Shown piece by piece: positions 7,111 to 41,275 of a DNA stretch of 64,000 nt (positions are counted from its first letter, which is position 1; the number at the start of each line of letters is the position of its first letter). A program made the translations under genes and the position numbers. The stretch is from Candidatus Omnitrophota bacterium. Lineage in GTDB: Bacteria; Omnitrophota; Gorgyraeia; JABMRJ01. The notes under the pieces are model-generated. The model saw only the letters and a list, made by a program, of their open reading frames with translations. It was not told the DNA's origin and searched no databases. The stretch spans positions 2,037 to 66,036 of the forward strand of contig JADHWH010000002.1 of assembly GCA_016783555.1 (NCBI GenBank), written 5' to 3'.

Positions 7111-7923
7111 ATGTCAGAGACCTTAAGTTTTTTTGCGATACAGATTACATTTTTGGCAGTGGTTCTAATTCTACACACCTATCTTGGGCTTCACGTCATC
7201 AGGCGAACCATTGTCTTTTCGGATCTTGTGCTTGATCAACTGGCGGCCTTTGGCGCCTTGGTCGGGATAGGGATAGGGATCCGATACGGAACAGCGAGTT
7301 CCTACCTGGTTTCGTTGATAGCCGTTATTTTTGGCGCTGTGCTGCTTGCTGTAATTAAACCCAAGAATCGATTGATACCAAGAGAAGCCGTTATCGGCAT
7401 AATGTATGCCTTAGCCCTTGCGGCATCCCTTTTATTAGCGGACAAACTTTCAGGGGGAGAGACTTATGTTACCAAGACCCTTTCCGGTTCTATGTTGTGG
7501 GTAACCTGGCCTCTTGTTATCGCAACAGTCGTTGCTTATATAATTTTATTATTGTTTCACTTCAAATTCCGTAGTCAGTTTATAACTTTAACCGAAAAGA
7601 AACTCATTATTAAAAATGAGAGATTCTGGGACTTTTTATTTTTTACCACCCAAGGTATTATTACGGTTCTTGTTGTTCCGATTGCCGGGGTTTTGCTGGC
7701 TTACGCATTTCTTATGATTCCGGCAGCGATCGTTGCGATGTTTACGAGAAAATGGGCCATTGCCGTGGCAATAGGATGGGGTATAGGGTTTATGGCCTGC
7801 ACGATAGGCCTTTTTGCCTCATATTTCTTCGATCTGCCTTATGGGCCTAGTCTTGTTTTATCATTGGGAGGTTTTTTTGTATGCGCTGTGATTATTCGCG
7901 CCTTTTTGCCGCAAAGGGCCTGA
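7111..7923 (+). CDS. metal ABC transporter permease (ABC-3 family, TroC/ZnuB-like)
   Basis: Polytopic; conserved YLGxHVIxRxxxFxxDxLxQxAAxG N-terminal ABC-3 signature. Confidence 0.8.
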   Translation: MSETLSFFAIQITFLAVVLILHTYLGLHVIRRTIVFSDLVLDQLAAFGALVGIGIGIRYGTASSYLVSLIAVIFGAVLLAVIKPKNRLIPREAVIGIMYALALAASLLLADKLSGGETYVTKTLSGSMLWVTWPLVIATVVAYIILLLFHFKFRSQFITLTEKKLIIKNERFWDFLFFTTQGIITVLVVPIAGVLLAYAFLMIPAAIVAMFTRKWAIAVAIGWGIGFMACTIGLFASYFFDLPYGPSLVLSLGGFFVCAVIIRAFLPQRA

Positions 7924-7940
7924 TCTGAAAAAGAAAGGAT

Positions 7941-8786
7941 TTGGCTATGCCACAACTCATTCAAATCTTTAGCCAACCGTTTTTAGTGTGCCTAACGATG
8001 GTCTTCATTTTGGGCTATATGGGTATCCATGTTCTCAAGAGAGAGGTAATATTCATTGACATTGCTCTGGCTCAGATTGCGGCAGTAGGGGCAATTGTTG
8101 CCCATGTTGCCTTTGAAGCGCACGGAGATTCACTTTTTAGTTATTCTTTCGCATTTGGTTTTACGCTGGTTGCATCCGTTTTCTATTCTCTCGTTCGTAG
8201 GAAGGTTAATCAGATCCCATTAGAGGCGGTTATCGGCATTTCCTACGCGATCGCGGCCGCAGCAGCGCTCTTTCTGGTTGGGATAGCTCCGGGCGGCCAC
8301 ATTCATGTGCACCAGATGCTATCCGGAAGTATTCTCTGGGCAACATGGAAAGACTTTTTATTATGTGTTTTTGTTTTTTCGGTAGTCGGTTTTTGCTTCT
8401 ACGTTTTCCGAAAACCCTTTAAGGAGATATCTGATAATTACGAAGCCGCTCTCAAGAAAGGAATAAAAGTAGTGTGGTGGGATTTTCTCTTCTATGCGTT
8501 ATTCGGCATTGTGATCACACTGGCTGTTAGGATTGGCGGCGTGGTGGTAATTTTTGCCTTCCTTATCATACCGGCAACAATCTCTTCCTTATTTTCTTCA
8601 AATTGGGTAAGGCGTTTGGTTATTAGCTGGGTAATCGGTGTAGGAGCGATAGTAGCGGGACTCTTGTTTGCAGACCATTTCGATTTTTCTATTGGTTCCT
8701 CTATTTCCTTTTTTCTGGGAGTGGCATTGGTTTTTGCTGGGCTTTTTCGGATAGGCCGACAGCGTATTGCTATAGCAAAAAAATGA
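7941..8786 (+). CDS. metal ABC transporter permease (ABC-3 family, TroD-like)
   Basis: Paralog of the upstream permease (YMGIHVLKREVIFIDIALAQIAAVG). Confidence 0.8.
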   Translation: MAMPQLIQIFSQPFLVCLTMVFILGYMGIHVLKREVIFIDIALAQIAAVGAIVAHVAFEAHGDSLFSYSFAFGFTLVASVFYSLVRRKVNQIPLEAVIGISYAIAAAAALFLVGIAPGGHIHVHQMLSGSILWATWKDFLLCVFVFSVVGFCFYVFRKPFKEISDNYEAALKKGIKVVWWDFLFYALFGIVITLAVRIGGVVVIFAFLIIPATISSLFSSNWVRRLVISWVIGVGAIVAGLLFADHFDFSIGSSISFFLGVALVFAGLFRIGRQRIAIAKK

Positions 8787-29002: not shown

Positions 29003-30052
29003 ATGAACACACGTCTACTTATAATCGGCGGTGATGAAAGGGTAGTGAATCTCCTTAAGGCACTGAGAGAGCTTAGGGGTATTAAGCTGGAGGGGCTTTG
29101 TGATAAAAGAGAGGACTCTCCCGGCATGAACTACGCCCGCAAGATAGCGCTCGATACTTATACCGACTTTAAGACGTGCATATCCGAAAAAAGACCCGAT
29201 ATTATAATCAATACGTCAGGCTGCAAAAAATTCCAAAAAGCGCTTAAGGACCTGAAAAAGAGGGATATCAAGATAATAGATTTAAAGACAGCCGGCCTCT
29301 TATTAGATATTGCCTCCGAGGAGATAAGATCAAAGAAAGAGGTCGATAAGATGAAGACGGAATTTATCTCTGCCACTTCTCACGAATTAAGGACGCCCCT
29401 GACAGCGATAAAAGAGTCGGTTATGCTTGTATTGGACGGCACCGCAGGCAAGGTATCCCCTCAGCAGATACGTTTTTTGAATATTACCAGGAAGAATATA
29501 AATAGACTGGCCGAATTAATAAATAATCTGCTCGATATATCTAAGATAGAGAGCGGCAGGCTAAAGCTCAAAAAAGAATTATGCAGCATATCCGGGCTTG
29601 TGATATACACAGTAAGATCCATGAAGCCCCTTGTCAGAGAGAATAGGCTTAAATTGAAGCTGGATATACCAAAGGCGCTGCCTAAGGTTTACTGCGATCA
29701 CGACAGAGTAGAACAAGTTCTTCTTAATTTTGTAGACAACGCTGCTAAATATACCCCGGCAGGCGGCAACATTAATATTAAGGCCTCGGAGCTCGTTGTT
29801 AAAAAGAAGAGATTCATGCAGATCTCTGTTAGGGATACCGGTATAGGCATAGCCAAGAAAGATATACCCAAGCTTTTTATCAGATTTGAACAGCTGGATA
29901 AATCTCTTACGAGAAGACCCGGCGGGGCAGGCCTCGGGCTTGCTATATGCAGAAAGCTTATCGAGATGCACGGCGGGCGTGTGTGGGTAGACTCTAGACC
30001 AGGCGGGGGTTCGATATTCAGTTTTACATTGCCGGTTGACGGCAGGAAGTGA
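29003..30052 (+). CDS. cytoplasmic sensor histidine kinase (N-terminal uncharacterised domain + HisKA + HATPase_c)
   Basis: H-box SHELRTPL, N-box NAAKYT, G1 DTGIGI, G2 GGAGLGL. No TM segments. Confidence 0.85.
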   Translation: MNTRLLIIGGDERVVNLLKALRELRGIKLEGLCDKREDSPGMNYARKIALDTYTDFKTCISEKRPDIIINTSGCKKFQKALKDLKKRDIKIIDLKTAGLLLDIASEEIRSKKEVDKMKTEFISATSHELRTPLTAIKESVMLVLDGTAGKVSPQQIRFLNITRKNINRLAELINNLLDISKIESGRLKLKKELCSISGLVIYTVRSMKPLVRENRLKLKLDIPKALPKVYCDHDRVEQVLLNFVDNAAKYTPAGGNINIKASELVVKKKRFMQISVRDTGIGIAKKDIPKLFIRFEQLDKSLTRRPGGAGLGLAICRKLIEMHGGRVWVDSRPGGGSIFSFTLPVDGRK

Positions 30053-30079
30053 ACCGGCATTGAAAACGAGGGGGTAGAT

Positions 30080-30484
30080 ATGGCAAAATTGAAGATCTTA
30101 TTGATAGATGACGAAAAAGATTTTCTCGAGCTTATGGGCAGGGTTATAAAGATGTGGGGCTATGATCTGATTACGGCCTTAAACGGAAAGGACGGAATAG
30201 ACGCGGTGAAAAAAAAGAGCCCGGATATCATAATATTAGATTATATAATGCCGGATTTAGACGGACTCTCTACGCTCAAAAAAATAAGGAGAATCGACAG
30301 AAAGATTCCCGTTATCATGTTTACGGCGCACCCCGACGGCAAATCATTAGGTCATACGGAAAGATTAGGGGTATCTTCATATATACCCAAGATGAGCGCA
30401 TATTCCGATACTCACGCTACGCTAAAGGCGGCTATCGAGATGGCGACAAAGAAATTGGGCGATAGGGGGTTACGAGATGGATAA
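30080..30484 (+). CDS. stand-alone response-regulator receiver
   Basis: ILLIDDEKDF...DIIILDYIMPDLDG. Confidence 0.85.
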   Translation: MAKLKILLIDDEKDFLELMGRVIKMWGYDLITALNGKDGIDAVKKKSPDIIILDYIMPDLDGLSTLKKIRRIDRKIPVIMFTAHPDGKSLGHTERLGVSSYIPKMSAYSDTHATLKAAIEMATKKLGDRGLRDG

Positions 30485-30848
30485 GAAGAGAATATTATTG
30501 GTTGATGATGAAAAAGACCTGGTTGAGACATTGACCTTCAGGCTGAAGGCAAATAATTACGAAGTAATCCCGGCCTATGACGGACAGGACGCATTCGACA
30601 AGGCGAAGAAAGAAAAACCGGATATAATAATATTGGATTTAATGCTCCCCAAGATGGACGGATATAAAGTCTGCGGCCTGCTTAAGGCTGATGCCAGATA
30701 CAGGAGTATCCCTATAGTCTTGTTTACCGCCCGCGCCCAGGATTCAGACAGGAAGATGGGTGAAGAAGTCGGCGCAGACGCGTATGTCACCAAGCCTTTT
30801 GAACCGCAGGTCTTGCTTGCAAAGATCAAAGAGTTATTAGAAAAATAA
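30477..30848 (+). CDS. stand-alone response-regulator receiver
   Basis: ILLVDDEKDL...DIIILDLMLPKMDG; ATGA overlap with the upstream receiver. Confidence 0.85.
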   Translation: MDKKRILLVDDEKDLVETLTFRLKANNYEVIPAYDGQDAFDKAKKEKPDIIILDLMLPKMDGYKVCGLLKADARYRSIPIVLFTARAQDSDRKMGEEVGADAYVTKPFEPQVLLAKIKELLEK

Positions 30849-30857
30849 GGAGATTAC

Positions 30858-32405
30858 ATGGCACGCGCTAAGGTAAAACAGAGAGGCGATGATTACCGAG
30901 AGCTTGTAGAAGGGCTTAAGAAGGCGAATGAAGAACTGAACAAAATAAATCAGATGAAATCCGATTTCATATCAGCGGTCTCTCATGAAATCCGCACGCC
31001 GTTGGCCTTGATCAAAGAGGGGGTTACGCAGGTATTAGACGGGACACTGGGGAGCCTCGCCAAAGATCAAGAGAGGTCCTTATCTATTGCGTGGGATAGT
31101 ATCGATAGGCTGTCAAAGGTGGTGGATTCTCTCTTGGATATCTCCAAGCTTGATGCGGGAAGGGTTGAGCTCAGAAGGACCCACGTAGATATGCCTGAAG
31201 TCGTAGAGGGCGTAGTCGAAGAATTCCGGCGCCTTGCCGAGAGCAAACGGATCAGTTTAAAATACAACAGGCCTGAAGAAAATTTCGAGATGTTTATAGA
31301 CGCAGAGAACATCAGGGGGGTTATTTCAAACCTTCTCTCAAACGCATTCAAGTTTACAAAAGAGGGCGGGGAGATTACAGTTGACTTGGAGGATAAAGGT
31401 AAGCATATGATTATGTCGGTAAAGGACACCGGCATCGGGATTGCGAAGGCTAATGTACCGAAGTTGTTTGATAAATATTCTCAATTCGGCCAAGCCCCCG
31501 CAGGCTACAAAGAAAAAGGCACGGGCCTGGGCCTCGCTATCGCTAAGGGGGTAGTAGAGATGCATAACGGCCGCATCTGGGCAGAATCGGCATTGGGCAA
31601 AGGAAGCACGTTTATATTTATGATTCCCAGGTTAAGCAGCGAAACCGTATTCAGGGAATATATATCTTACGGAATTAAAGAAGCCATTAATAAGGAGTCT
31701 TTCTTATCCATAGTGGTCTTGCGGCTAGAGGGCTATAAAGAACTACAGAAGAAGTTAAAGTCCGATGAGACCATAACTATATTGACCGGTCTGGAAGGAG
31801 ATGTAAGGAAGATACTCAGAAGCAATACAGACATATTCTTAAGAGACACCGGCGAATGCGTAATAGTGCTTTTCGGCACGGACAGAAGCGGGGTTATGGT
31901 CGTTAAGAACAAGGTTATAGAAGCGGCGAGAAGATATATAGACCAGGTTCAAAAAAAGCGTAAGACCATACTTAAAATCAGCATAGGGATATCCACCTAC
32001 CCCGAAGAAGCCAGGACGAGCGAAGAGATGCTCTTTAAGGCCCGTGTTAGATTAATCCCCATGTATACCGGCCCCGAGAGGAGGCAGTATTACCGTAAGA
32101 TCTGCAAGATTGACGCGAGGGCTGTTAAGGAGGAGAAAGAGCTTATGGAGCTTGAGACGGTTGATGTAAGCGAAGGGGGAGTCTGTATATTTACTGATTC
32201 GCCGGTCAAAAAAGGCTCAATGCACGAATTTATCTTTGACTTGCCGAGAGGGCTTGGAACCATAAAGACGAAGGTCAAAGCGATATGGGCAATAAAAGAA
32301 GAAGGAAGAGAGAGTTATAGAACCGGTTTTCAGTTTACTGAAGTGAGCAATGAGGATTTAAAGAAACTCAGGAGTTTTATATATTCCGGTTCCAGGGGAG
32401 AATAG
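30858..32405 (+). CDS. cytoplasmic histidine kinase fused to a degenerate GGDEF-like domain and a C-terminal PilZ domain
   Basis: HisKA (SHEIRTPL) + HATPase_c (DTGIGI, GTGLGL); middle domain with GGDEF-like fold (IVVLRLEGYKEL...RDTGECVIVL) lacking the GG(D/E)EF active site; PilZ motifs RRQYYR and DVSEGG. Confidence 0.7.
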   Translation: MARAKVKQRGDDYRELVEGLKKANEELNKINQMKSDFISAVSHEIRTPLALIKEGVTQVLDGTLGSLAKDQERSLSIAWDSIDRLSKVVDSLLDISKLDAGRVELRRTHVDMPEVVEGVVEEFRRLAESKRISLKYNRPEENFEMFIDAENIRGVISNLLSNAFKFTKEGGEITVDLEDKGKHMIMSVKDTGIGIAKANVPKLFDKYSQFGQAPAGYKEKGTGLGLAIAKGVVEMHNGRIWAESALGKGSTFIFMIPRLSSETVFREYISYGIKEAINKESFLSIVVLRLEGYKELQKKLKSDETITILTGLEGDVRKILRSNTDIFLRDTGECVIVLFGTDRSGVMVVKNKVIEAARRYIDQVQKKRKTILKISIGISTYPEEARTSEEMLFKARVRLIPMYTGPERRQYYRKICKIDARAVKEEKELMELETVDVSEGGVCIFTDSPVKKGSMHEFIFDLPRGLGTIKTKVKAIWAIKEEGRESYRTGFQFTEVSNEDLKKLRSFIYSGSRGE

Positions 32406-32408
32406 CAT

Positions 32409-34106
32409 ATGGCGAGGAAGGTCAAGAAGGCGTTAGGCGAAAGCCTGGTAGATGCGGGGATTATAACGCGCGACCAGCTTAAAGAGGCGCAGGATGAAGA
32501 ACAGAAGACCGGCCAGCGCCTGCGCACGGTTTTAGTGAAGACGGGGTTAATCGCGGAAGAAGACCTTGTGGCGTTCTTAAGCGATAAATTAGGCGTGCCG
32601 AGAATCGAACTGGGCAACTATTTAATAGACTCAAAGATAGTGGAATTAATACCGGAGGAACTCGCAAGAAAGCACGGACTTATCCCGGTATTAAAGATAG
32701 GAAACCGCCTTACCTGCGTCATGGTCGACCCCTGGAATGTATTTGCGCTCGATGAGATAAGGTTGAGGACCAATCTTATTATCGAGCCGGCGGTGGCTAC
32801 CGAGTCCGAAATCAAGAAGGCCCAGAATGAGCATTACGGCGCAAAGGGGACGATGGAGGATGTAATAAAGAGTGTCGAGAAAGAGAAAGTCGAGATAAAA
32901 GCGGGAGAGACGGATGTCAGGAGGTTAGAAGGGGTAGCTGAGGAGCCTGTTGTCGTAAGATTGGTTAATGTGATAATCATGAAGGCCGTTGGGGAAAGGG
33001 CAAGTGATATACATATTGAACCGGAAGAGACGGCGCTTAAGACGCGATTCAGGGTTGACGGCATGCTTCATGAGGTCCAGTCTCCGCCTAAGCATCTGCA
33101 GTCTGCTATAATCTCAAGGATTAAGATAATGGCAAATTTAGACATCGCCGAGAGGAGGATCCCCCAGGACGGAAGATTCGACATAAATATAGCGGGTAGA
33201 AAGATCGATGTCCGCGTATCATGTGTGCCTACCGTATACGGCGAGAATGTAGTCATGCGGCTTTTGGACGTAGCCACGACGCTTTTGACGCTTAGGGATA
33301 TAGGGTTTTCCAAAGAGATTCTCCTTGAATATCAGAAGCTCATTTCGCGGCCGCACGGCATAATATTGGTTACAGGCCCTACCGGCAGCGGAAAGACAAC
33401 TACGCTCTATGCGTCTTTAGACAAGATAAACACCGTTGAGAAAAATATAATCACTATTGAAGATCCCGTTGAATATAAACTCGCGGGCATAAGGCAGATT
33501 CAGGTAAATGAGAAAGTGAATCTTACCTTCGCCAATGGGCTGAGGTCCATATTGAGACAGGATCCGGATATAATAATGATAGGCGAGATAAGAGACTATG
33601 ATGCCGCTGAGATCGCAATCCACGCCGCTCTTACCGGCCATCTTGTCTTTTCCACGCTCCATACTAACGACGCGCCGGGCGCCGTAACGAGATTGCTGGA
33701 TATAGGCCTGGAGCCGTTTTTAGTCTCCTCTTCTATAATAGGCATCCTGGCCCAGAGGCTTATAAGGACAGTCTGCAAGGATTGCAAAGAGGAATATACG
33801 CCTACCGAAGAAGAGTTGAGAGATATCGGGTTATTAGAAAGAAGCCAGAAAAAAATAAAATTCTATAGGGGCAAGGGGTGTCAGAAGTGTATGAATACAG
33901 GCTACAAGGGCAGAATAGGGATCTTTGAGCTGATGCCTATTACCGATAAGATTCGAAATCTAATCGTTGCCAAGGCCCCCGTAGAAGATATAAGAAGAGA
34001 GGCGCTTTCGTTGAAAATGGTTACATTGACAGCGAACGGCATAGATAAGATTGTGGAAGGCCTTACCACAGCGGAAGAGGTGCTGCGGGTGACTCAGGAG
34101 GAGTAA
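32409..34106 (+). CDS. pilB: type IV pilus assembly ATPase PilB/GspE with N-terminal MshEN-type domain
   Basis: Two MshEN-like motifs (ALGESLVDAGIITRDQLKEAQ, RLRTVLVKTGLIAEEDLVAFLSDKLG); Walker A GPTGSGKTT; tetracysteine CKDC...CQKC. Confidence 0.85.
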   Translation: MARKVKKALGESLVDAGIITRDQLKEAQDEEQKTGQRLRTVLVKTGLIAEEDLVAFLSDKLGVPRIELGNYLIDSKIVELIPEELARKHGLIPVLKIGNRLTCVMVDPWNVFALDEIRLRTNLIIEPAVATESEIKKAQNEHYGAKGTMEDVIKSVEKEKVEIKAGETDVRRLEGVAEEPVVVRLVNVIIMKAVGERASDIHIEPEETALKTRFRVDGMLHEVQSPPKHLQSAIISRIKIMANLDIAERRIPQDGRFDINIAGRKIDVRVSCVPTVYGENVVMRLLDVATTLLTLRDIGFSKEILLEYQKLISRPHGIILVTGPTGSGKTTTLYASLDKINTVEKNIITIEDPVEYKLAGIRQIQVNEKVNLTFANGLRSILRQDPDIIMIGEIRDYDAAEIAIHAALTGHLVFSTLHTNDAPGAVTRLLDIGLEPFLVSSSIIGILAQRLIRTVCKDCKEEYTPTEEELRDIGLLERSQKKIKFYRGKGCQKCMNTGYKGRIGIFELMPITDKIRNLIVAKAPVEDIRREALSLKMVTLTANGIDKIVEGLTTAEEVLRVTQEE

Positions 34107-35320
34107 TGAGCAGATTTGCCTACAGGGCGCGTGATACTATGGGAAAACCCGTCAAGGGCTCGATAGAAGCAGATACAAAGACAGAAGTCATAGACAGGCT
34201 TAATAAGATGAACTATATGGCGACGTATGTTGGTGAAATCAGACCCAGCACGAAGTTAGAATCGATGCTCCAGGGGTTAAAGAGGGTTAGAAGTGATGAC
34301 ATGCTGCTGTTTTTTATTCAATTCTCCAACATGATAAATGCGGGTATACCCATTCTTACGTGCCTTCACACGCTCGAGGCGCAGATAGAGAATGTAGTCT
34401 TAAAGAAGACCGTGCGCGGCGTGGCAAATAACGTTGAAGGCGGGGATAGTCTTTCTCAGGCATTTGCGGGATTTCCCTTTATATTTCCCAGGCTATTTAC
34501 AAATATGATAAAGGCCGGCGAGGCAAGCGGAAAGCTCGATACTGTTTTGGCAAGATACGCCCAGTTTTTTGAACATCAGGAGGATTTAAGACAGCAGGTA
34601 AAGGGGGCGCTTATATATCCTATAATACTTTTATGCGCGGGGCTTGTCGTTATTCTTATCATAGTTACTTTTGTTATCCCTCAGTTTGCCGAGATCTACA
34701 TGAAGGCAGGCATAAGGCTGCCGATACCGACGCTGATCGTCTATAATATCGGCACAGCGATCAGGCATTATTGGTATCTCTTCGTTTTAGCTCTTCTCCT
34801 TATCTCAACCGGCATTAAATATTATTCAAGGACCAAGAGAGGCACGCTTAAATTTGATAGATTGAAATTGAAGATACCCGTCATCGGGCCGCTCAACCGC
34901 AAGGTAGCTATCGCCAGATTCTCAAGGACGCTGGCGACGCTTGTCGGAAGTGGTGTCCCTATATTGGAGTCGTTGGATATAACAAGGGGCGTTATAGAGA
35001 ATGAAATATTGGCGCGGGTTATAGATAATATGCGAGGCTGTGTCGAGAAGGGCGATAGGATGGCCGGGTCTTTAAAGATAAGCGAAGAATTTCCGTCAGA
35101 TGTGATTCAGATGATCAATGTGGGGGAAGAGACCGGAAGTCTCGATACGATGTTAAATAAGATCGCGGACTTCTATGATATGACGGTTGGATACGCTGTA
35201 AGGAGATTGACCACTCTTATCGAGCCGTTCTTTTTAGTCATAATGGGCGTTATGATAGGGTTTATAATGGCATCGATGCTTCTGCCCATTTTTGATATGA
35301 TAAAGACCTTGCGCCATTGA
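34106..35320 (+). CDS. pilC: type IV pilus inner-membrane platform protein PilC/GspF
   Basis: Two GspF repeats and 3 TM segments; ATGA overlap with pilB. Confidence 0.85.
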   Translation: MSRFAYRARDTMGKPVKGSIEADTKTEVIDRLNKMNYMATYVGEIRPSTKLESMLQGLKRVRSDDMLLFFIQFSNMINAGIPILTCLHTLEAQIENVVLKKTVRGVANNVEGGDSLSQAFAGFPFIFPRLFTNMIKAGEASGKLDTVLARYAQFFEHQEDLRQQVKGALIYPIILLCAGLVVILIIVTFVIPQFAEIYMKAGIRLPIPTLIVYNIGTAIRHYWYLFVLALLLISTGIKYYSRTKRGTLKFDRLKLKIPVIGPLNRKVAIARFSRTLATLVGSGVPILESLDITRGVIENEILARVIDNMRGCVEKGDRMAGSLKISEEFPSDVIQMINVGEETGSLDTMLNKIADFYDMTVGYAVRRLTTLIEPFFLVIMGVMIGFIMASMLLPIFDMIKTLRH

Positions 35321-35610: not shown

Positions 35611-36039
35611 ATGAAGAGAGGCTTTACGATTCTCGAACTTCTGATAGTCATAGCTGTAATATCCATCCTGGTCGGCATAGCGCTTCCGCGATTCAGGGGC
35701 ATGCAGGTGGAAGGGCTCTACGCGCAGGCAAAAGGAGAATTGCGCACACTCCAGACCGCCGTGGAGAGCTATTATATCCACAATGGCGCTTATCCTTCTA
35801 CTTTTCCCGATGATGTCGAAGGGGCAACCCCTAATATTATCGGCGCCACTGCTCCTACGGATCCATTTACCACCAGCAGTGATTATGGATATGATACCAC
35901 GGGAAATTATTACATCATATGGTCGGTAGGCCCCGGCGGCACGGCGACCATTTCCGGGATTGATACGAATGGAGCTCTTGAAGGCACAACCGGCGATGAT
36001 ATATACGCCTCTAATGCCTTTGCTACTATAGGCGGCTGA
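35611..36039 (+). CDS. type IV major pilin (class III signal peptide)
   Basis: MKRG|FTILELLIVIAVISIL prepilin cleavage/methylation motif with Glu at +5; strong SD AAAAAGGAGG. Confidence 0.8.
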   Translation: MKRGFTILELLIVIAVISILVGIALPRFRGMQVEGLYAQAKGELRTLQTAVESYYIHNGAYPSTFPDDVEGATPNIIGATAPTDPFTTSSDYGYDTTGNYYIIWSVGPGGTATISGIDTNGALEGTTGDDIYASNAFATIGG

Positions 36040-36049
36040 TCGGACATAT

Positions 36050-36448
36050 ATGGGGGACTCGATTCGCGGTTTTACATTATTGGAGGTCCTTATCGCTACT
36101 GTCATTATGACGGCAGGGATGCTGGCGATAATGTGGGCCTTTAGTGCGGGGATATTCGCCATAAGCGACGTCGAGAATGTAGAAGATACCCTGAATGCCG
36201 GCCAGTTGAAGATGGAGGAGGTCTTCGCCGAACTAAAAGATATAAATTTTTCTGTGTTGACTGACCAGAATGTGCAGGATTTTGAAGATAGAAAGAGCGG
36301 CACGGTTTCGGGATACGATGTGACCGTAGACTTATATGAAGATGATCTTGATTCAGGAGATCTTATGCAGATAGATGTGAAGGTTGAATGGGATGTAAAA
36401 GGCGGAACAGCAGAACTTATCTTAACAACGTTAGCAGCCGACTATTAA
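36050..36448 (+). CDS. type IV minor pilin (prepilin-type N-terminus)
   Basis: IRG|FTLLEVLIATVIMTAG; acidic globular domain. Confidence 0.6.
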   Translation: MGDSIRGFTLLEVLIATVIMTAGMLAIMWAFSAGIFAISDVENVEDTLNAGQLKMEEVFAELKDINFSVLTDQNVQDFEDRKSGTVSGYDVTVDLYEDDLDSGDLMQIDVKVEWDVKGGTAELILTTLAADY

Positions 36449-37620
36449 TGAAGAAGATGCGGGGTGCGAATCACGCGTTCACAATTATAGAATTGATGAT
36501 GACGATTGTGCTCTTTGTCATTTTAACCGTAGTCTCAATCTTTCTATTCCGTACGATTTTATTAAGCTGGTCCAGCCAGGAGACCAGGGCGGGTATCGAT
36601 ATAGATATCGATTTTGCAGTGGAGAATATGGTGCGGGACCTGAGGGAGGCCCAGATAGTAGGTTTTGCCAATGCCGATGAGATAAGATTTACACAAGGCC
36701 TCAACGACGACACTAATAATTACATATATTACCTTTATGACTCCAGTGATTCCTATCCGCCCGATTTTGACCAGGATACATACCAATTAAGAAAGGCCGG
36801 CTTAACCGGCGTAAGCGGCCGGGATCTGTCAACGGGGACTTTTACCTATGGCGAGGGAGATATTATCACAACCGATGTGATATCGCCCAATGACGCGGAT
36901 GATCCATCGGATCTGTCGTTCAGGGTGCCGGAGGCGTTTTATTATGTACTCCACGCAGGCAACCTCTATACAGGCGACGATATTACTTTTCAAGGTTCCA
37001 GCGGAACGATCACCGGTGATTTAAGTGCCTCTGATAAAGTATCACAAGAAAGCGGCATGACGATAAACGGGACTATATACGAGATGGGCGACTCCAATAC
37101 GACTCTGCCTATCGTGGGACTCTCTTACTACGGGAGTATCGCTGATTATTCTTACACAACCAACCAGACATTTTCGGCAGATCCGGCGGCTGGGATACAC
37201 TACATAGACGGCAATGTCACAATAACGAGCAACGTGACTATTGACAACGCAACGATTATCGCTACGGAAGGTATTACCCTGCGGAATGCCACGGGTTTGA
37301 CCGTAAGCCCGGCATATCCTTATCCCGCCCTAGTCGCAGGGAGCAGTATTAACGCAAGCGGGGCAGAGGGCACTATAAACGGCCTGGTCTATGCTGCTGG
37401 TAACGTAGATTTAGATCAGGCGAACATTATCCTTAATGGTACGATGGTTGCGGGCGGCACCATTACTATGACCGACGGGACCTTTACGTGTACCTATGAT
37501 TCTGATATACAATCTGTCTCACCCCCATATTTTTATTACAGCACTATTACTTTAGATTTATGCGTCGAAAGCGACGACGAGAAGATAGAATCGAGCACAA
37601 AGGTAAGGCCGAGATTATGA
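36448..37620 (+). CDS. large pseudopilin (prepilin-type N-terminus + N/T/G-rich beta-helix-like repeat domain)
   Basis: Start set at ATG 36448 (TAATG overlap): MKKMRGANHA|FTIIELMMTIVLFVIL; C-terminal repeats (NVTITSNVTIDNATIIATEGITL...TINGLVYAAGNVDL). Confidence 0.6.
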   Translation: MKKMRGANHAFTIIELMMTIVLFVILTVVSIFLFRTILLSWSSQETRAGIDIDIDFAVENMVRDLREAQIVGFANADEIRFTQGLNDDTNNYIYYLYDSSDSYPPDFDQDTYQLRKAGLTGVSGRDLSTGTFTYGEGDIITTDVISPNDADDPSDLSFRVPEAFYYVLHAGNLYTGDDITFQGSSGTITGDLSASDKVSQESGMTINGTIYEMGDSNTTLPIVGLSYYGSIADYSYTTNQTFSADPAAGIHYIDGNVTITSNVTIDNATIIATEGITLRNATGLTVSPAYPYPALVAGSSINASGAEGTINGLVYAAGNVDLDQANIILNGTMVAGGTITMTDGTFTCTYDSDIQSVSPPYFYYSTITLDLCVESDDEKIESSTKVRPRL

Positions 37621-38726
37621 AGGGGATAATCACTTTTAATGAAAAAGGCGCGGCGCTATTGTTCACCTTTATGATAATGGCAACGCTTGTCATATTTACG
37701 GTCTTCTTTCTATTTATGACATCGACGCAACTAAGACGCTCGGCTTTTGATAAACAGGGCTCCCAGGCGCTATGGATAGCCGAAGGGGGGCTGCAGCGAT
37801 ATATATATCTTCTTAGCGACGGGACATATGATAGCGGCAATCATCCGGATTTAAGCGATAGCATATCGGTAGACGGCACGACAATCGGAGATTATGAGGT
37901 AACATCCACTTATAATGCGGGGACGAGTACCTTTACCATTACCTCGACCGGGACAGTAGGGGTCGTGGATAGAGAGGTAGCGCAGGACGTTACAGTAACG
38001 ACAACGGAAGCTATTCTGACCCGGGCCATACATTCCGACGGAAGCCTATTAGATTTTGAAGGGTCCGACGGAACCATAAACGGAGATATGAGCTGCCATG
38101 TTCAGGTGGCCAATGAGGAGAGCCTGACATTGATAAACTGCACCATATATGAAGGTCTCGTCAAACTCAACCCTACGGTAGATTTCCCTACCTATGAGGT
38201 CCTCGCCGATGCGGTCGGCCAGTCTGTGACGATTAATCTTACGTTTGAAGACGCTACTTATGCGGGAGTATGGTACACAACGAAAAAGGCTACTATAGGT
38301 AATAACGCTACCATTAACGGCTCCGTCTTTGCCGAAGGGGCCATCGACTTTGTCAACAGCGCGACTAATATCACCATAAACCCCAACAATAATTATCCCG
38401 CACTCGCTACGCAGTCCAGCATTAGCAGTTCCGATACCGGCCCGCCTGCCGCAAGGACCGGCTTGAACGACGCTACTATAAACGGCATGGTCTATGCCTT
38501 GCAGAATATTACATTGGATTATATGAATAAGAATACTGCGAACAGCGTCACCATCGACGGCACTATAATCGCAGGAAGTAATATTACAATAAAGAACGGC
38601 ACCAATTTTACTATTATTTACAATGAAGATATTTATGATCCCATGCCGCCGGGCGTAGATCTCGGCGTCACGACAACGATCAATGTTACACCAAAAGATT
38701 GGGACGAGAATATCCCAGTCTCCTAG
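37617..38726 (+). CDS. PilX-like large minor pilin with beta-helix-like repeat domain (paralog of upstream gene)
   Basis: PilX_N-like N-terminus (EKGAALLFTFMIMATLVIF...STQLRRSAF); C-terminal repeats share YPAL...TINGMVYA...TIDGTIIAG with the upstream gene; ATGA overlap. Confidence 0.55.
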   Translation: MKGIITFNEKGAALLFTFMIMATLVIFTVFFLFMTSTQLRRSAFDKQGSQALWIAEGGLQRYIYLLSDGTYDSGNHPDLSDSISVDGTTIGDYEVTSTYNAGTSTFTITSTGTVGVVDREVAQDVTVTTTEAILTRAIHSDGSLLDFEGSDGTINGDMSCHVQVANEESLTLINCTIYEGLVKLNPTVDFPTYEVLADAVGQSVTINLTFEDATYAGVWYTTKKATIGNNATINGSVFAEGAIDFVNSATNITINPNNNYPALATQSSISSSDTGPPAARTGLNDATINGMVYALQNITLDYMNKNTANSVTIDGTIIAGSNITIKNGTNFTIIYNEDIYDPMPPGVDLGVTTTINVTPKDWDENIPVS

Positions 38727-38735
38727 AGATTACTT

Positions 38736-40325
38736 ATGGGAATATTTAAGAAAGATTATATTGTAGGACTGGATATAGGTAGTTCCTCGATAAAGCTGGC
38801 TCAATTTGTAAAGAGGCAGGATGGCCTCTATCTTGTAAAAGCCGATTTAAAAGAGATTAAAACCACTGGTAATGATACCCTTGATGAGGGGATAATAGTA
38901 GGTTCTCTTAATGAGTTTTTAAGGGATGTTAATATTAAGAGGTCTAAGTTTGTCGTTGCCATTAATTGCCCCAAGACATGCGTGAGGACAGTCGTTGTCC
39001 CTTACATGCCGAAGAATGAATTGCAGGAAGGGATAAGGCTTGCGGCAAAGAATTATTTTCCGTTTCCTGTGGATGATGTATTGATGGATTTTGAGATATT
39101 GGGCGAGATATTAGAAAAGGGCGTTAGGAAATACCAGTTGTCTGTGGCCGTATCGCCGAAGACGACCGTCGATAGATATATTGCTTTATTGCGCAAGGCC
39201 GGCATAAGGCCTTCTTTATTTATACCTCTCCCTTTGGCGCTGCAGAAGGTGATAGAGCGGGCATGCCCCGAGGAGAAAGATGTTAAGGCGGCGCTCGACA
39301 TAGGGGAGTGTTTTACGGAGCTGGCCATATTCACGGGCAAAAATTTAGTCTTCTGCCGTAAGATCCCGGTAGCGGGCAGCGATATTACCAGGGCGATGAC
39401 GGATGTCTTGGCTTCGGATATAGGAAAGACATCATTGTCCATGGAAGATGCAGAGAGGTTGAAGCGCGAGCATGGAATACCCAGGGAGGGCGACGCGAGG
39501 ATTATAGAAAATAAAATCTCCACACAACAGATCTTATCCATGGTAAGGCACCCGTTAGAAAATATGGCCAACGAGATAGATAGATGTTTTGATTATTACA
39601 GGGAAGAATCGGGCGGCGGAACGATAGATTCTATGCTGCTATTCGGAGGAGGGGCGTTTTTAAGAGGCCTGCCGGAGTTTCTAACTGAGGAACTTGGCAT
39701 AGAGGTCAAGCTCGGCAATCCTCTCAAAAACCTTAAGATCAAGACCGGCAAGGTAATTGAGAAGAAGGGCATATCCAACCGATTAGCGACGTCAATAGGC
39801 GCGGCTTTAAGTTTTGCTAAAGGGATGAACCTGCTTCCCGTAGAGGTAAAAGAAGAGACCAAGCGCACCGTTAAGCGCGTAACCGCGTTTGGTGCTGTTA
39901 CGGCAGTTATTCTCTCTTTGATTCTTTTGTATGTAGGCATGAAGATACAACTCACAGCTTTTCAAAGAAGGATCGGCGCTGCAAAGAGAGAGTATATAAG
40001 CATCATGCCTCAGCTTAAGCTGGCCGAGACGCAGGCGATGGCCGACAAGACATTGACAAACGAGCCTTATTGGGAAGACGTCTTTATGGAGATAAGCAAT
40101 GTTATACCAGGAAATATTTATCTTACGGAATTAAACATGAAGGATGGAGCTAAGGATGGAGCTATTGAGATAAAAGGGATTGTAGATATAGAAGAAGGCG
40201 AGGGAGTCCTTTCAGACTTTATCCTTGCCCTGGAAAAAGGGATATTTAAAAACGTAAAACTTATTACGACAAAAGATATAGAAGATACAAAAAGCAGGTT
40301 TGAGATAAAATGCAGGGCGGATTAA
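38736..40325 (+). CDS. PilM-PilN fusion protein (actin-like ATPase domain + TM + PilN domain)
   Basis: PilM N-terminus (GLDIGSSSIKLAQF) over about 350 aa, then TM helix (VTAFGAVTAVILSLILLYVGM) and a PilN-like periplasmic region. Confidence 0.75.
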   Translation: MGIFKKDYIVGLDIGSSSIKLAQFVKRQDGLYLVKADLKEIKTTGNDTLDEGIIVGSLNEFLRDVNIKRSKFVVAINCPKTCVRTVVVPYMPKNELQEGIRLAAKNYFPFPVDDVLMDFEILGEILEKGVRKYQLSVAVSPKTTVDRYIALLRKAGIRPSLFIPLPLALQKVIERACPEEKDVKAALDIGECFTELAIFTGKNLVFCRKIPVAGSDITRAMTDVLASDIGKTSLSMEDAERLKREHGIPREGDARIIENKISTQQILSMVRHPLENMANEIDRCFDYYREESGGGTIDSMLLFGGGAFLRGLPEFLTEELGIEVKLGNPLKNLKIKTGKVIEKKGISNRLATSIGAALSFAKGMNLLPVEVKEETKRTVKRVTAFGAVTAVILSLILLYVGMKIQLTAFQRRIGAAKREYISIMPQLKLAETQAMADKTLTNEPYWEDVFMEISNVIPGNIYLTELNMKDGAKDGAIEIKGIVDIEEGEGVLSDFILALEKGIFKNVKLITTKDIEDTKSRFEIKCRAD

Positions 40326-40326
40326 G

Positions 40327-40869
40327 ATGAGGCTTGAAAAAGATAAATTAAAAATGATTATAGCAGGCACTTCTTTAATTTGCGCTTTGGGGATATACCT
40401 CTTTTTATACAAACCCTTGGTAATAGACTTAAAGAAGGCATACCGGGAGAGCAGAAACTGGGAGATCAAGGTGCTCGATGCCCGGGGTTTTATTGAGTCT
40501 GTTAAGATAACGCGGGCCAAGAGCACGGTCCTGGCCGAAGAAGACATCTCGCTTGCAATAGACGAGCTTACCAGATTCGGCAGGTTAAAAAACGTCAATT
40601 ATATTTCTATGACGCCCAAAGAGGGCCGGAAGAAGAAACACTTACATTACCAGATATTACCTATCGAGATAGAGACGGAGTCCACTTATGAAGACTTGGG
40701 TGAATTCCTGGGTTCCCTCGATGAACTAGAGCACAGTTTAATCACAGTAGATAGTTTTAGAATCACTCCCCATAAGGCAAAGGAGATAAGCGACGAAGGT
40801 GATCTATCAAACATTAAATCAAAGTTGGTTATAAATATGTATCTTATAGGCAGAGTTTATGCAGAATAA
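40327..40869 (+). CDS. PilO-like pilus assembly protein
   Basis: N-terminal TM helix, coiled-coil and PilO-like periplasmic fold; operon position. Confidence 0.55.
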   Translation: MRLEKDKLKMIIAGTSLICALGIYLFLYKPLVIDLKKAYRESRNWEIKVLDARGFIESVKITRAKSTVLAEEDISLAIDELTRFGRLKNVNYISMTPKEGRKKKHLHYQILPIEIETESTYEDLGEFLGSLDELEHSLITVDSFRITPHKAKEISDEGDLSNIKSKLVINMYLIGRVYAE

Positions 40870-41275
40870 AAAATTAATAATACTGGTAATATTGATTATC
40901 GGGGCCATAGCCAGCCTGATATACGGCATAAACGCCCCGCCGAAAACAAAATATGGAGTCCAAAGAGCGCCGTCATCAGTTGAGGAAAGAATCGAGATGG
41001 CAAAGAGGACTATCTCGGTTAAGCGCAGGGCCAGGAAGACCGAATATACCGTATGGGGTAGAAACCCCTTTGTGCCGGAACTAACCCCGAAAGAGCGGCT
41101 TGTAAAGCTTACCCTAAACGGCATACTCTGGGATGAAGATTACCCCAGCGCTATATTAAATAAGAGCATTGTAAAGATAGGCGATGTTGTGGACGGAAAT
41201 ACCATTGTAGATATAGGGCCTGATAAGGTCATACTGAATGACGGGACAGGCGACTTCGAACTCAGACTGGAATAG
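40859..41275 (+). CDS. PilP-like lipoprotein/periplasmic pilus assembly protein
   Basis: TM/signal anchor, GRNPF motif (PilP RDPF-like), beta-rich C-terminus. Confidence 0.4.
   Translation: MQNKKLIILVILIIGAIASLIYGINAPPKTKYGVQRAPSSVEERIEMAKRTISVKRRARKTEYTVWGRNPFVPELTPKERLVKLTLNGILWDEDYPSAILNKSIVKIGDVVDGNTIVDIGPDKVILNDGTGDFELRLE

Follow-up and report, generated by a model that had tools for sequence, protein, structure and literature searches.

A putative two-headed type IV pilus tip in an Omnitrophota bacterium, with a β-solenoid inserted into a second class of minor pilin

The DNA analysed here (the window) is a stretch of 64,000 nucleotides from a Candidatus Omnitrophica MAG, and contains a type IV pilus-like operon in which two genes, referred to as BIG1 and BIG2, are adjacent (Table 1). 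The first-pass annotation, made from the sequence alone, had marked the pair as very large paralogous pseudopilins, and both open reading frames stand as described, encoding 390 and 369 aa. The start codon of BIG1 (ATG) shares 1 nt with the stop codon of the preceding gene, which encodes the 132-aa pilin, and BIG1 and BIG2 overlap by four bases (ATGA).

Table 1. Genes of the pilus-like operon and features of the BIG1 and BIG2 products (aa numbering refers to the precursors).
Feature	Position	Strand	Evidence
Assembly ATPase, GspE/PilB type, N-terminal MshEN	32409..34106	+	Pfam T2SSE 9.4e-138, MshEN 1.5e-20
Inner-membrane platform protein, GspF/PilC type	34106..35320	+	Pfam T2SSF 9.7e-61
Presumed major pilin, 142 aa, MKRG↓FTILE	35611..36039	+	N_methyl 2.1e-6, T2SSG 3.1e-5, both over cut-off; GspG and PilA N-terminal matches
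Minor pilin, 132 aa, GspI/PilV position	36050..36448	+	N_methyl 4.3e-6; sub-threshold GspI 0.0022, PilV 0.011
BIG1, 390-aa minor pilin, GspJ/PilW position, inserted β-solenoid	36448..37620	+	
BIG1 predicted leader peptide, aa 1-10, MKKMRGANHA; cleavage before F11-T-I-I-E15	36448..36477	+	Sub-threshold N_methyl; TIGR02532 at aa 8-29
BIG1 pilin module, first part, aa 11-157	36478..36918	+	Similarity to L001 solenoid-free pilin
BIG1 inserted β-solenoid, aa 158-366, 209 aa, predicted IBP-1-like fold	36919..37545	+	
BIG1 last pilin-module segment, aa 367-390, ITLDL...VRPRL, and stop codon	37546..37620	+	Aligns with C-terminal 23 residues of short orthologues
BIG2, 369-aa PilX/GspK/ComZ-type capping minor pilin with β-solenoid	37617..38726	+	
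BIG2 N-terminal helix and pilin β-sheet, about aa 12-130, no Glu5	37650..38006	+	
BIG2 β-solenoid, about aa 131-348	38007..38660	+	
BIG2 C-terminal segment, near-invariant DWxE motif, and stop codon	38661..38726	+	D361, W362, E364 invariant in alignment A6
PilM-PilN fusion protein	38736..40325	+	PilM_2 3.6e-32, PilN 4.5e-5
PilO-like protein	40327..40869	+	PilO 6.4e-6
Small protein, possibly GspC/PilP-like	40859..41275	+	Sub-threshold T2SSC 0.0014, GspC 0.0042

The 142-aa pilin is probably the major subunit, judging from its size and position. Downstream of it, the order GspI/PilV-like gene, J-position pilin and GspK/PilX-like gene is kept in the window and in four other loci (L001, L003, L004 and L007); a pilin of 119–132 aa occupies the GspI/PilV position in these four and in L026, and the small, possibly GspC/PilP-like protein keeps its position in L001, L003 and L004. 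Among the called genes at ~14–64 kb of the window and four large ORFs in 1–14 kb, Pfam gave no match to a prepilin peptidase (A24), secretin, retraction ATPase or PilY1, and processing and surface exposure of the pilins thus depend on the rest of the genome.

The composition of the operon bears on whether BIG1 and BIG2 belong to a surface pilus or instead cap the periplasmic pseudopilus of a type II secretion-like machine, as a piston head. The best named pilin matches are GspG, GspI, GspJ and GspK, a weak GspC-like protein is present, the operon has no retraction ATPase, and the PilM-PilN fusion has its domains in the order of GspL. On the other hand, the PilM_2, PilN and PilO matches are over their cut-offs, no secretin or GspL/M family match is present among the genes and ORFs scanned, and Omnitrophota loci of this kind have been classed as type IVa pili (PMC10066038). 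Solenoid-bearing caps that have been solved or studied, namely ComZ and PilX, likewise belong to type IV pili (PMC6561018; bioRxiv 10.64898/2026.02.12.705559), and Gsp names discriminate poorly because the minor pilins of Thermus thermophilus also resemble T2SS pseudopilins (PMC6561018). A secretion piston is therefore considered unlikely.

BIG1 begins with a class III signal followed by Glu5 (Glu15 of the precursor), which is invariant across seven orthologues. Its N-terminus reads MKKMRGANHA↓FTIIELMMTIVLFVILTVV, and cleavage by prepilin peptidase is predicted at HA↓FTIIE rather than at the canonical G↓FTIIE that had been assigned on first reading; among the four long-form orthologues of BIG1 the site is G↓F in two and A↓F in the other two. 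This agrees with the type IV pilin pattern, in which a short leader with basic residues and a −1 Gly (seldom Ala) precede Phe, Met or Leu at +1, Glu at +5 and about 20 hydrophobic residues. Position −1 is Ala, and the signal-peptide HMM scores fall just under their curated cut-offs (17.3 against 21.2 and 15.8 against 16.3 bits).

The first part of BIG1 is 53% identical (1e-43) to aa 1–135 of a solenoid-free pilin in the syntenic operon of L001, which is 166 aa long as gene-called and 180 aa from its likely true start. Residues 17–157 and 367–389 of BIG1 align with this short pilin, and residues 158–366 are extra. By this alignment, the solenoid is inserted directly ahead of the final conserved C-terminal segment, which is 24 residues long; the β-rich domain had initially been placed at the very C-terminal end, a description that needs correcting for BIG1 in this respect. 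The solenoid is modelled with pLDDT >90, and the pilin module is poorly modelled, with pLDDT <50 at aa 121–158 and 368–390.

The class of this pilin module is indicated by gene position together with sub-threshold matches, which point to GspJ/PilW. BIG1 carries Glu5 and lies between GspI/PilV-like and GspK/PilX-like genes, as expected of GspJ/PilW/ComGF from gene order. The best named matches of the short orthologues are GspJ (TIGR01711; 1.2e-4, 21.9 bits with a cut-off of 64.85) and ComGF (9.2e-5, 22.7 bits with a cut-off of 80), and BIG1 itself matches ComGF weakly (E 0.025).

BIG2 belongs to a different minor-pilin class, and the solenoid is all that it has in common with BIG1. Its N-terminus (...NEKG↓AALLFTFMIMATL) has Phe at +5 in place of Glu5, which is also absent from nearly all of 128 representatives of its family. 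The initial description of BIG2 as PilX_N-like holds for the family rather than for the protein: BIG2 has no match to Pfam PilX_N (PF14341) at E<=0.1, but 46 of the 128 representatives match at E<=0.01, and the BIG2 orthologues P0011 (27.9 bits) and P0022 (27.4 bits) clear the cut-off of 25.5 bits. BIG2 also has a sub-threshold N-terminal match to GspK (NF037980; 25 bits, cut-off 130), and its model (pLDDT 90) shows a GspK-like fold in the pilin part. Both N-termini are thus of pilin type, as first proposed, rather than membrane anchors of unrelated proteins.

In the BIG2 model the C-terminal segment contains strands at 355–359 and 363–365 and, by analogy with ComZ, probably returns to the pilin sheet. 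ComZ is the first-ranked Foldseek match of BIG2 (E 6.7e-7) and its top PDB match by sequence profile (E 0.0016), with a superposition spanning 277 residues. This superposition and the C-terminal strands that follow the solenoid suggest that the insertion site in BIG2 is the same as in BIG1. As a ComZ/PilX-type protein BIG2 is unexceptional, and its large family comprises 206 clusters at E<=1e-30, mostly missed by current Pfam models. BIG2 shows that Omnitrophota, too, have as their standard cap the solenoid-bearing ComZ/PilX protein already described in Thermus and cyanobacteria.

The β-rich regions of BIG1 and BIG2 are homologous, as the first-pass annotation had proposed (BLASTP E=2e-23, 32% identity, with the strongest similarity in these regions). 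The periodic motifs that it noted are real: the best off-diagonal self-alignment scores 56, a value reached by none of 100 shuffles (34.1±5.8 for BIG1 and 31.5±4.9 for BIG2). No DNA-level tandem repeat matching the protein periodicity was found in these genes, and an origin of the motifs in composition or in a DNA tandem array is rejected on both counts. Each solenoid, of roughly 210 residues, is modelled as a triangular right-handed β-solenoid of the ice-binding-protein (IBP-1/DUF3494) fold, and each chain combines this IBP-like solenoid with a pilin fold, as ComZ does. A β-helix-like fold had been correctly anticipated, although not its kind, since a pectate-lyase-like right-handed β-helix is neither the best structural match of BIG1 or BIG2 nor represented in them by a catalytic family signature. 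Little speaks for the solenoids being enzymes brought out on the pilus tip, such as polysaccharide lyases or hydrolase-like β-helices: neither protein shows an enzyme signature, nothing else supports the enzymatic role once suggested for them, and this reading is very improbable.

Searches of Pfam and NCBIfam with BIG1 and BIG2 returned no above-threshold family for the β-rich domains. Neither protein matches Pfam Ice_binding (PF11999), which is matched by four of the 128 relatives (best 1.6e-7), or DUF7305 (PF23981), which is matched by 12 of the 128 at E<=0.01 and by the distant relative P0026 at 6.6e-16. The fold is common to DUF3494/IBP-1 ice-binding proteins (7BWX, 3WP9, 6BG8), but identity to these is only 15–17%, and the domain is here embedded in a pilin. 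The same fold also occurs in ComZ of a thermophile (PMC6561018) and in cyanobacterial PilX (bioRxiv 10.64898/2026.02.12.705559). Ice binding is thus an unlikely role, and a reading in which the solenoids bind ice like the DUF3494 proteins of similar fold, and so anchor cells to it, is very improbable.

Both solenoids are strongly acidic, with net charges of −16 and −17, a pI of about 4.05 and just 3 and 7 basic residues. This bears on a further possibility, namely that the solenoid tip serves natural transformation as a DNA receptor, the function proposed for ComZ and for competence-type cyanobacterial PilX. The acidity argues against it, although charge alone does not dispose of this reading because ComZ itself lacks a positive patch (PMC6561018). 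Identity to ComZ is just 11–14%, the DNA-binding lysines of ComZ may not be conserved, and no competence genes were seen by Pfam among the called genes at ~14–64 kb of the window and the four large ORFs in 1–14 kb. A DNA receptor is accordingly regarded as a minor possibility.

The precedents for the solenoid-pilin architecture are ComZ and cyanobacterial PilX. ComZ of T. thermophilus (PDB 6QVI; Salleh et al. 2019, PMC6561018) binds DNA and has a solenoid of about 380 residues with long loops, whereas the BIG1 and BIG2 domains are very acidic and about 210 residues long; only one tip pilin of Thermus bears a solenoid, compared with two here. Cyanobacterial PilX (PilX-Com and PilX-EPS), from a different phylum, resembles BIG2 in being a capping pilin without Glu5 that bears a triangular solenoid of IBP type, probably inserted at the corresponding point, and has been proposed as a tip plug where PilY1 is absent (bioRxiv 10.64898/2026.02.12.705559). 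In that study the solenoid was described in the PilX family only and none was reported for the PilW family, whereas here the pilin at the PilW/GspJ position has one too. In the GspI-GspJ-GspK tip trimer of the T2SS (PDB 3CI0), the GspK insert is α-helical and located at another position (PMC6561018), in contrast to the solenoids of BIG1 and BIG2; GspJ of the T2SS has no solenoid, unlike BIG1, and the machine described here has PilM/N/O-type parts. The modular pilins PilB and PilC of Streptococcus sanguinis (Raynaud et al. 2021, PMC8179133) follow a similar principle, with a functional module joined to a pilin and presented at the tip, but their modules (vWA, lectin) are recognisable database domains attached C-terminally via a linker, whilst the solenoids probably lie inside the pilin fold and escape the Pfam models.

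Few proteins are built like BIG1: its architecture is confined to four protein clusters in 5.8 billion. For 24 species-representative loci, only the gene directly upstream of the BIG2 orthologue, the PilX-type gene, was checked; in all 24 it encodes a solenoid-free class III pilin of 154–209 aa, and in this comparison L026 alone has the long, BIG1-like form. BIG1 is therefore a rare case in which a tip subunit of another class, small as a rule, has received a PilX/ComZ-type solenoid head.

In neighbour-joining trees, the BIG1 solenoids cluster together in 199 of 200 bootstraps, and BIG2 and its orthologues, including those of short-form operons, cluster without BIG1 in 197 of 200. BIG1 and BIG2 are sisters in 0 of 200, which rejects a recent duplication of the adjacent BIG2 as the source of the BIG1 solenoid, with the proviso that only neighbour-joining was used and that rate artefacts are possible. 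The BIG1 solenoid is 44% identical to those of P0005/P0006 and 36% identical to the BIG2 group.

Taken together, these observations suggest that BIG1 and BIG2 are the heads of a putative two-headed tip plug or adhesin on a type IV pilus-like filament, a deduction to which a probability of about 0.7 is attached. The operon would build the filament, and its tip (priming) complex would come from the three adjacent genes in the same order as GspI-GspJ-GspK of the T2SS, namely the 132-aa pilin (I-like), BIG1 (J-like) and BIG2 (K/PilX/ComZ-like). Lacking Glu5, BIG2 would cap the end of the filament; BIG1, which retains Glu5 and the class III signal, would therefore sit just beneath it. The tip location that had been proposed at the outset is retained, since ComZ and GspK, which are matched here, are themselves tip pilins. 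The solenoids, too bulky for the filament body, would project from its distal end and presumably pack there as two heads, acting as a plug or adhesin in the role held by PilY1 in proteobacteria. No family match of BIG1 or BIG2 indicates a ligand, and the tip would most likely contact a surface or host-cell ligand. Type IVa pili of Omnitrophota have been proposed to attach to host cells (PMC10066038). Minor pilins decide the binding target of type IV pili, and Omnitrophota are thought to be dependent on pili for attachment to host cells.

On origin, a joint reading is put forward tentatively. A small Omnitrophota clade may have built a heteromeric two-solenoid pilus tip by acquiring a PilX-type solenoid laterally from another lineage and splicing it into a GspJ/PilW-class pilin before the C-terminal segment, apparently at the PilX/ComZ topological site, whilst other lineages may have arrived at two solenoids through a tandem duplication inside PilX. 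If so, the number of solenoids at the tip would be under selection and tunable, serving the recognition of hosts or surfaces by these ultra-small, host-dependent bacteria. BIG1 in any case provides a concrete case of tinkering with modules in which one is inserted rather than fused to an end, and a solenoid module mobile between pilin classes apparently lands at the same structural site, and the long-form (L006) and short-form (L001) operons in one sample, ERZ24794671, form a natural pair for asking what the second head adds.

Three other Glu5-bearing solenoid proteins (P0189, P0119 and P0008) are rejected as BIG1 orthologues, as they have the solenoid alone in common with it. Two solenoids can also be present in one chain, as in P0047, P0048 and P0058, each of which contains two full copies.

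BIG1 (390 residues) is a novel form of minor pilin within a known kind, in which a β-solenoid is inserted into a probable J-class pilin, and is encoded next to BIG2 (369 residues), a solenoid-bearing pilin of the capping type. Both genes lie within a closely packed plus-strand operon of a Candidatus Omnitrophica metagenome-assembled genome, and their products are 100% identical to NCBI ISS34_00705 and ISS34_00710 respectively, both annotated 'hypothetical protein'. The start ATG of BIG1 shares one base with the stop codon of the preceding pilin gene, and the BIG1 stop overlaps the BIG2 ATG (ATGA), which suggests translational coupling of the two.

Coordinates of the pilus operon and of other features in the window
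Feature	Position	Strand	Remark
ORF, 470 aa	4594-6006		zero Pfam matches at E<=1e-5
ORF, 363 aa	24821-25912		zero Pfam matches at E<=1e-5
Histidine kinases and response regulators	29003-32405	+	operon member
Histidine kinase	30858-32405		weak GGDEF match, C-terminal PilZ domain
GspE/PilB ATPase	32409-34106	+	MshEN domain
GspF/PilC platform protein	34106-35320	+	
Hydrophobic ORF, 75 aa	35341-35568	+	between platform and pilin genes; sole Pfam signal a sub-threshold DUF4345
Pilin, 142 aa	35611-36039	+	
Minor pilin, 132 aa	36050-36448	+	
BIG1	36448-37620	+	
BIG2	37617-38726	+	
DWxE motif	38697-38708		BIG2 aa 361-364
PilM-PilN fusion, 529 aa	38736-40325	+	
PilO	40327-40869	+	
Small protein	40859-41275	+	GspC matches sub-threshold

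The first-pass annotation had described two paralogous, very large pseudopilins with periodic motifs, and this observation is confirmed. Both ORFs are present, the proteins are homologous (BLASTP E=2e-23, 32% identity), and the periodicity is real at the protein level, with a top off-diagonal self-alignment score of 56 that 0/100 shuffles reach (shuffled scores 34±6 and 32±5 for the two proteins); no DNA tandem repeat was found beneath the motifs. The supposedly canonical G|FTIIE of BIG1 reads HA|FTIIE instead. The site is G|F in two of the four long-form (solenoid-carrying) orthologues and A|F in the other two, with Glu5 invariant.

AlphaFold2 modelling of BIG2 with a 39-sequence alignment (mean pLDDT 90) gives a helix (9-67), an antiparallel sheet (79-129) and then a long series of many short strands, while the BIG1 model exceeds pLDDT 90 over approximately aa 160-365 and falls below 50 in the pilin head. 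Foldseek ranks ComZ first (E 6.7e-7) followed by ice-binding proteins, and ComZ is also the best PDB match of the family sequence profile, the aligned part being the conserved pilin-head region 'AxxYxAEAGLQ ... STGT' (E 0.0016). The models and fold matches thus bear out the earlier β-helix reading but rule out its pectate-lyase variant, the fold being a triangular IBP-1 solenoid.

The architecture of BIG2 has already been described in ComZ, which combines a GspK-like pilin fold and a triangular solenoid superposable on the ice-binding protein FfIBP (PMC6561018). The same IBP-like solenoid is reported at the same site in every cyanobacterial PilX homologue, where it is proposed as a 'tip plug' in the absence of PilY1 (2026 preprint, bioRxiv 10.64898/2026.02.12.705559), and the grafting of modules onto pilins for display at the tip is known as the 'modular pilin' concept (PMC8179133). 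With a PilX/GspK-type N-terminus lacking Glu5 (KG|AALLF...; GspK N-terminal match 1.2e-5, sub-threshold) and a GspK-like fold, BIG2 is an ordinary member of this ComZ/PilX kind. When 1.84 billion cluster representatives were searched exhaustively with a profile, 206 relatives passed E<=1e-30 and 2019 passed E<=1e-10, mainly full-length (320-370 aa). Glu5 is absent in nearly all of 128 family representatives, of which a Pfam scan matched 46 to PilX_N, 13 to Bactofilin, 12 to DUF7305 and 4 to Ice_binding, so existing models cover the solenoid poorly. Among GTDB species representatives, full-length relatives are nearly all Omnitrophota MAGs, with weaker ones in KSB1 and Pseudomonadota MAGs. Orthologues (28-47% identity) also occur in L015, L018, L020, L027, L034 and L046, GTDB third-party assemblies titled 'uncultured Planctomycetia' or 'Scalindua', labels that may be imprecise; there too a short class III pilin precedes the orthologue, as in Omnitrophota loci. 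All close BIG2 relatives have the DWxE motif near the C-terminus, and it is nearly invariant family-wide.

In syntenic Omnitrophota operons with the gene order of the window (L001, L003, L007), the pilin at the position of BIG1 has only 167-180 residues. BIG1 aa 17-157 align with residues 1-135 of the L001 protein as gene-called (53% identity, 1e-43), and aa 367-389 with its final 23. In a seven-sequence alignment, aa 158-366 stand out as a clean insertion of 209 residues, flanked by '...SDLS' and 'ITLDL...VRPRL' and located directly before the last conserved C-terminal segment; by alignment, the pilin module of BIG1 being modelled poorly, this site appears to correspond to that in ComZ. Canonical G|LTLIE signals are present in the short orthologues, whose best named matches, GspJ (1.2e-4) and ComGF (9.2e-5), both sub-threshold, are consistent with the J/PilW position. 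The L001 gene call (7504-8004) begins at an internal Met; read from farther upstream in the same frame (MRRSKKSG|LTLIE), the protein has 180 aa and a canonical class III signal.

The long form is rare, with only four clusters among 5.8 billion proteins. Where the gene upstream of the BIG2 orthologue could be identified in species-representative loci, it is a solenoid-free class III pilin of 154-209 aa in 24/24; a BIG1-type gene (393 aa) was found in L026 only. One metagenome sample, ERZ24794671, yields both the long-form contig of the window (L006) and the short-form contig L001, two populations whose J-pilin modules are 53% identical.

One origin for the insert, a recent copy of the adjacent BIG2, is rejected by bootstrapped neighbour-joining, in which the two solenoids are sisters in 0/200 replicates; BIG1-type solenoids group together (199/200), and BIG2 groups with its orthologues, including those from short-form operons, without BIG1 (197/200). 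The BIG1 solenoid is 44-46% identical to those of the PilX-type proteins P0005 and P0006, the latter from a syntenic operon with a short J-pilin, and approximately 36% identical to that of BIG2. The source may be an older paralogue or another lineage, as judged from neighbour-joining trees that are open to rate artefacts. Some unrelated Glu5-bearing pilins also have the solenoid: P0123 and P0157 have Glu5-type N-termini, and P0008, P0119 and P0189, on comparison, resemble BIG1 in the solenoid alone. P0008 (L009 6590-8260; 556 aa) has an extra ~300-aa region and belongs to a different, smaller pilus operon. Two complete tandem solenoids in the PilX-type representatives P0047, P0048 and P0058 (545-602 aa) indicate that tip-solenoid doubling arose in cis, in addition to in trans here.

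By analogy with GspI-J-K and ComZ-PilA2, the 132-aa pilin, BIG1 and BIG2 would form the priming complex, with BIG2, since it lacks Glu5, as the cap and BIG1 beneath. Both solenoids would point distally as a bulky head serving as plug and adhesin, a predicted two-headed tip; the processing of the pilins, their place at the tip, the packing of the heads and the ligand are all inferred. The adhesive-tip interpretation of the first-pass annotation is supported with these refinements, and no enzyme signature was found in BIG1 or BIG2. An adhesive tip fits the proposed role of Omnitrophota type IVa pili in host-cell attachment (PMC10066038). That the solenoids are instead DNA receptors is weighed against by their strong acidity (net -16 and -17, pI ~4.05, 3 and 7 basic residues), although ComZ, which binds DNA as well as the GspI-like PilA2, likewise has no positive patch (PMC6561018).

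Pfam scans detected no prepilin peptidase, secretin, retraction ATPase or PilY1; they covered the called genes in ~14-64 kb of the window and only four large ORFs in the first 14 kb. Nitrogen-assimilation genes lie downstream of the operon. The PilZ-bearing histidine kinase lies directly 5' of the pilus ATPase, with several response regulators upstream of the pair; MshEN is a c-di-GMP-binding module in MshE, and this arrangement suggests that pilus assembly is under c-di-GMP and two-component control. The PilM-PilN fusion, whose domain order is that of the T2SS protein GspL, is kept in L001, L003 and L004, and ORFs of 69-75 aa occupy the place of the 75-aa ORF in L004, L006 and L007.
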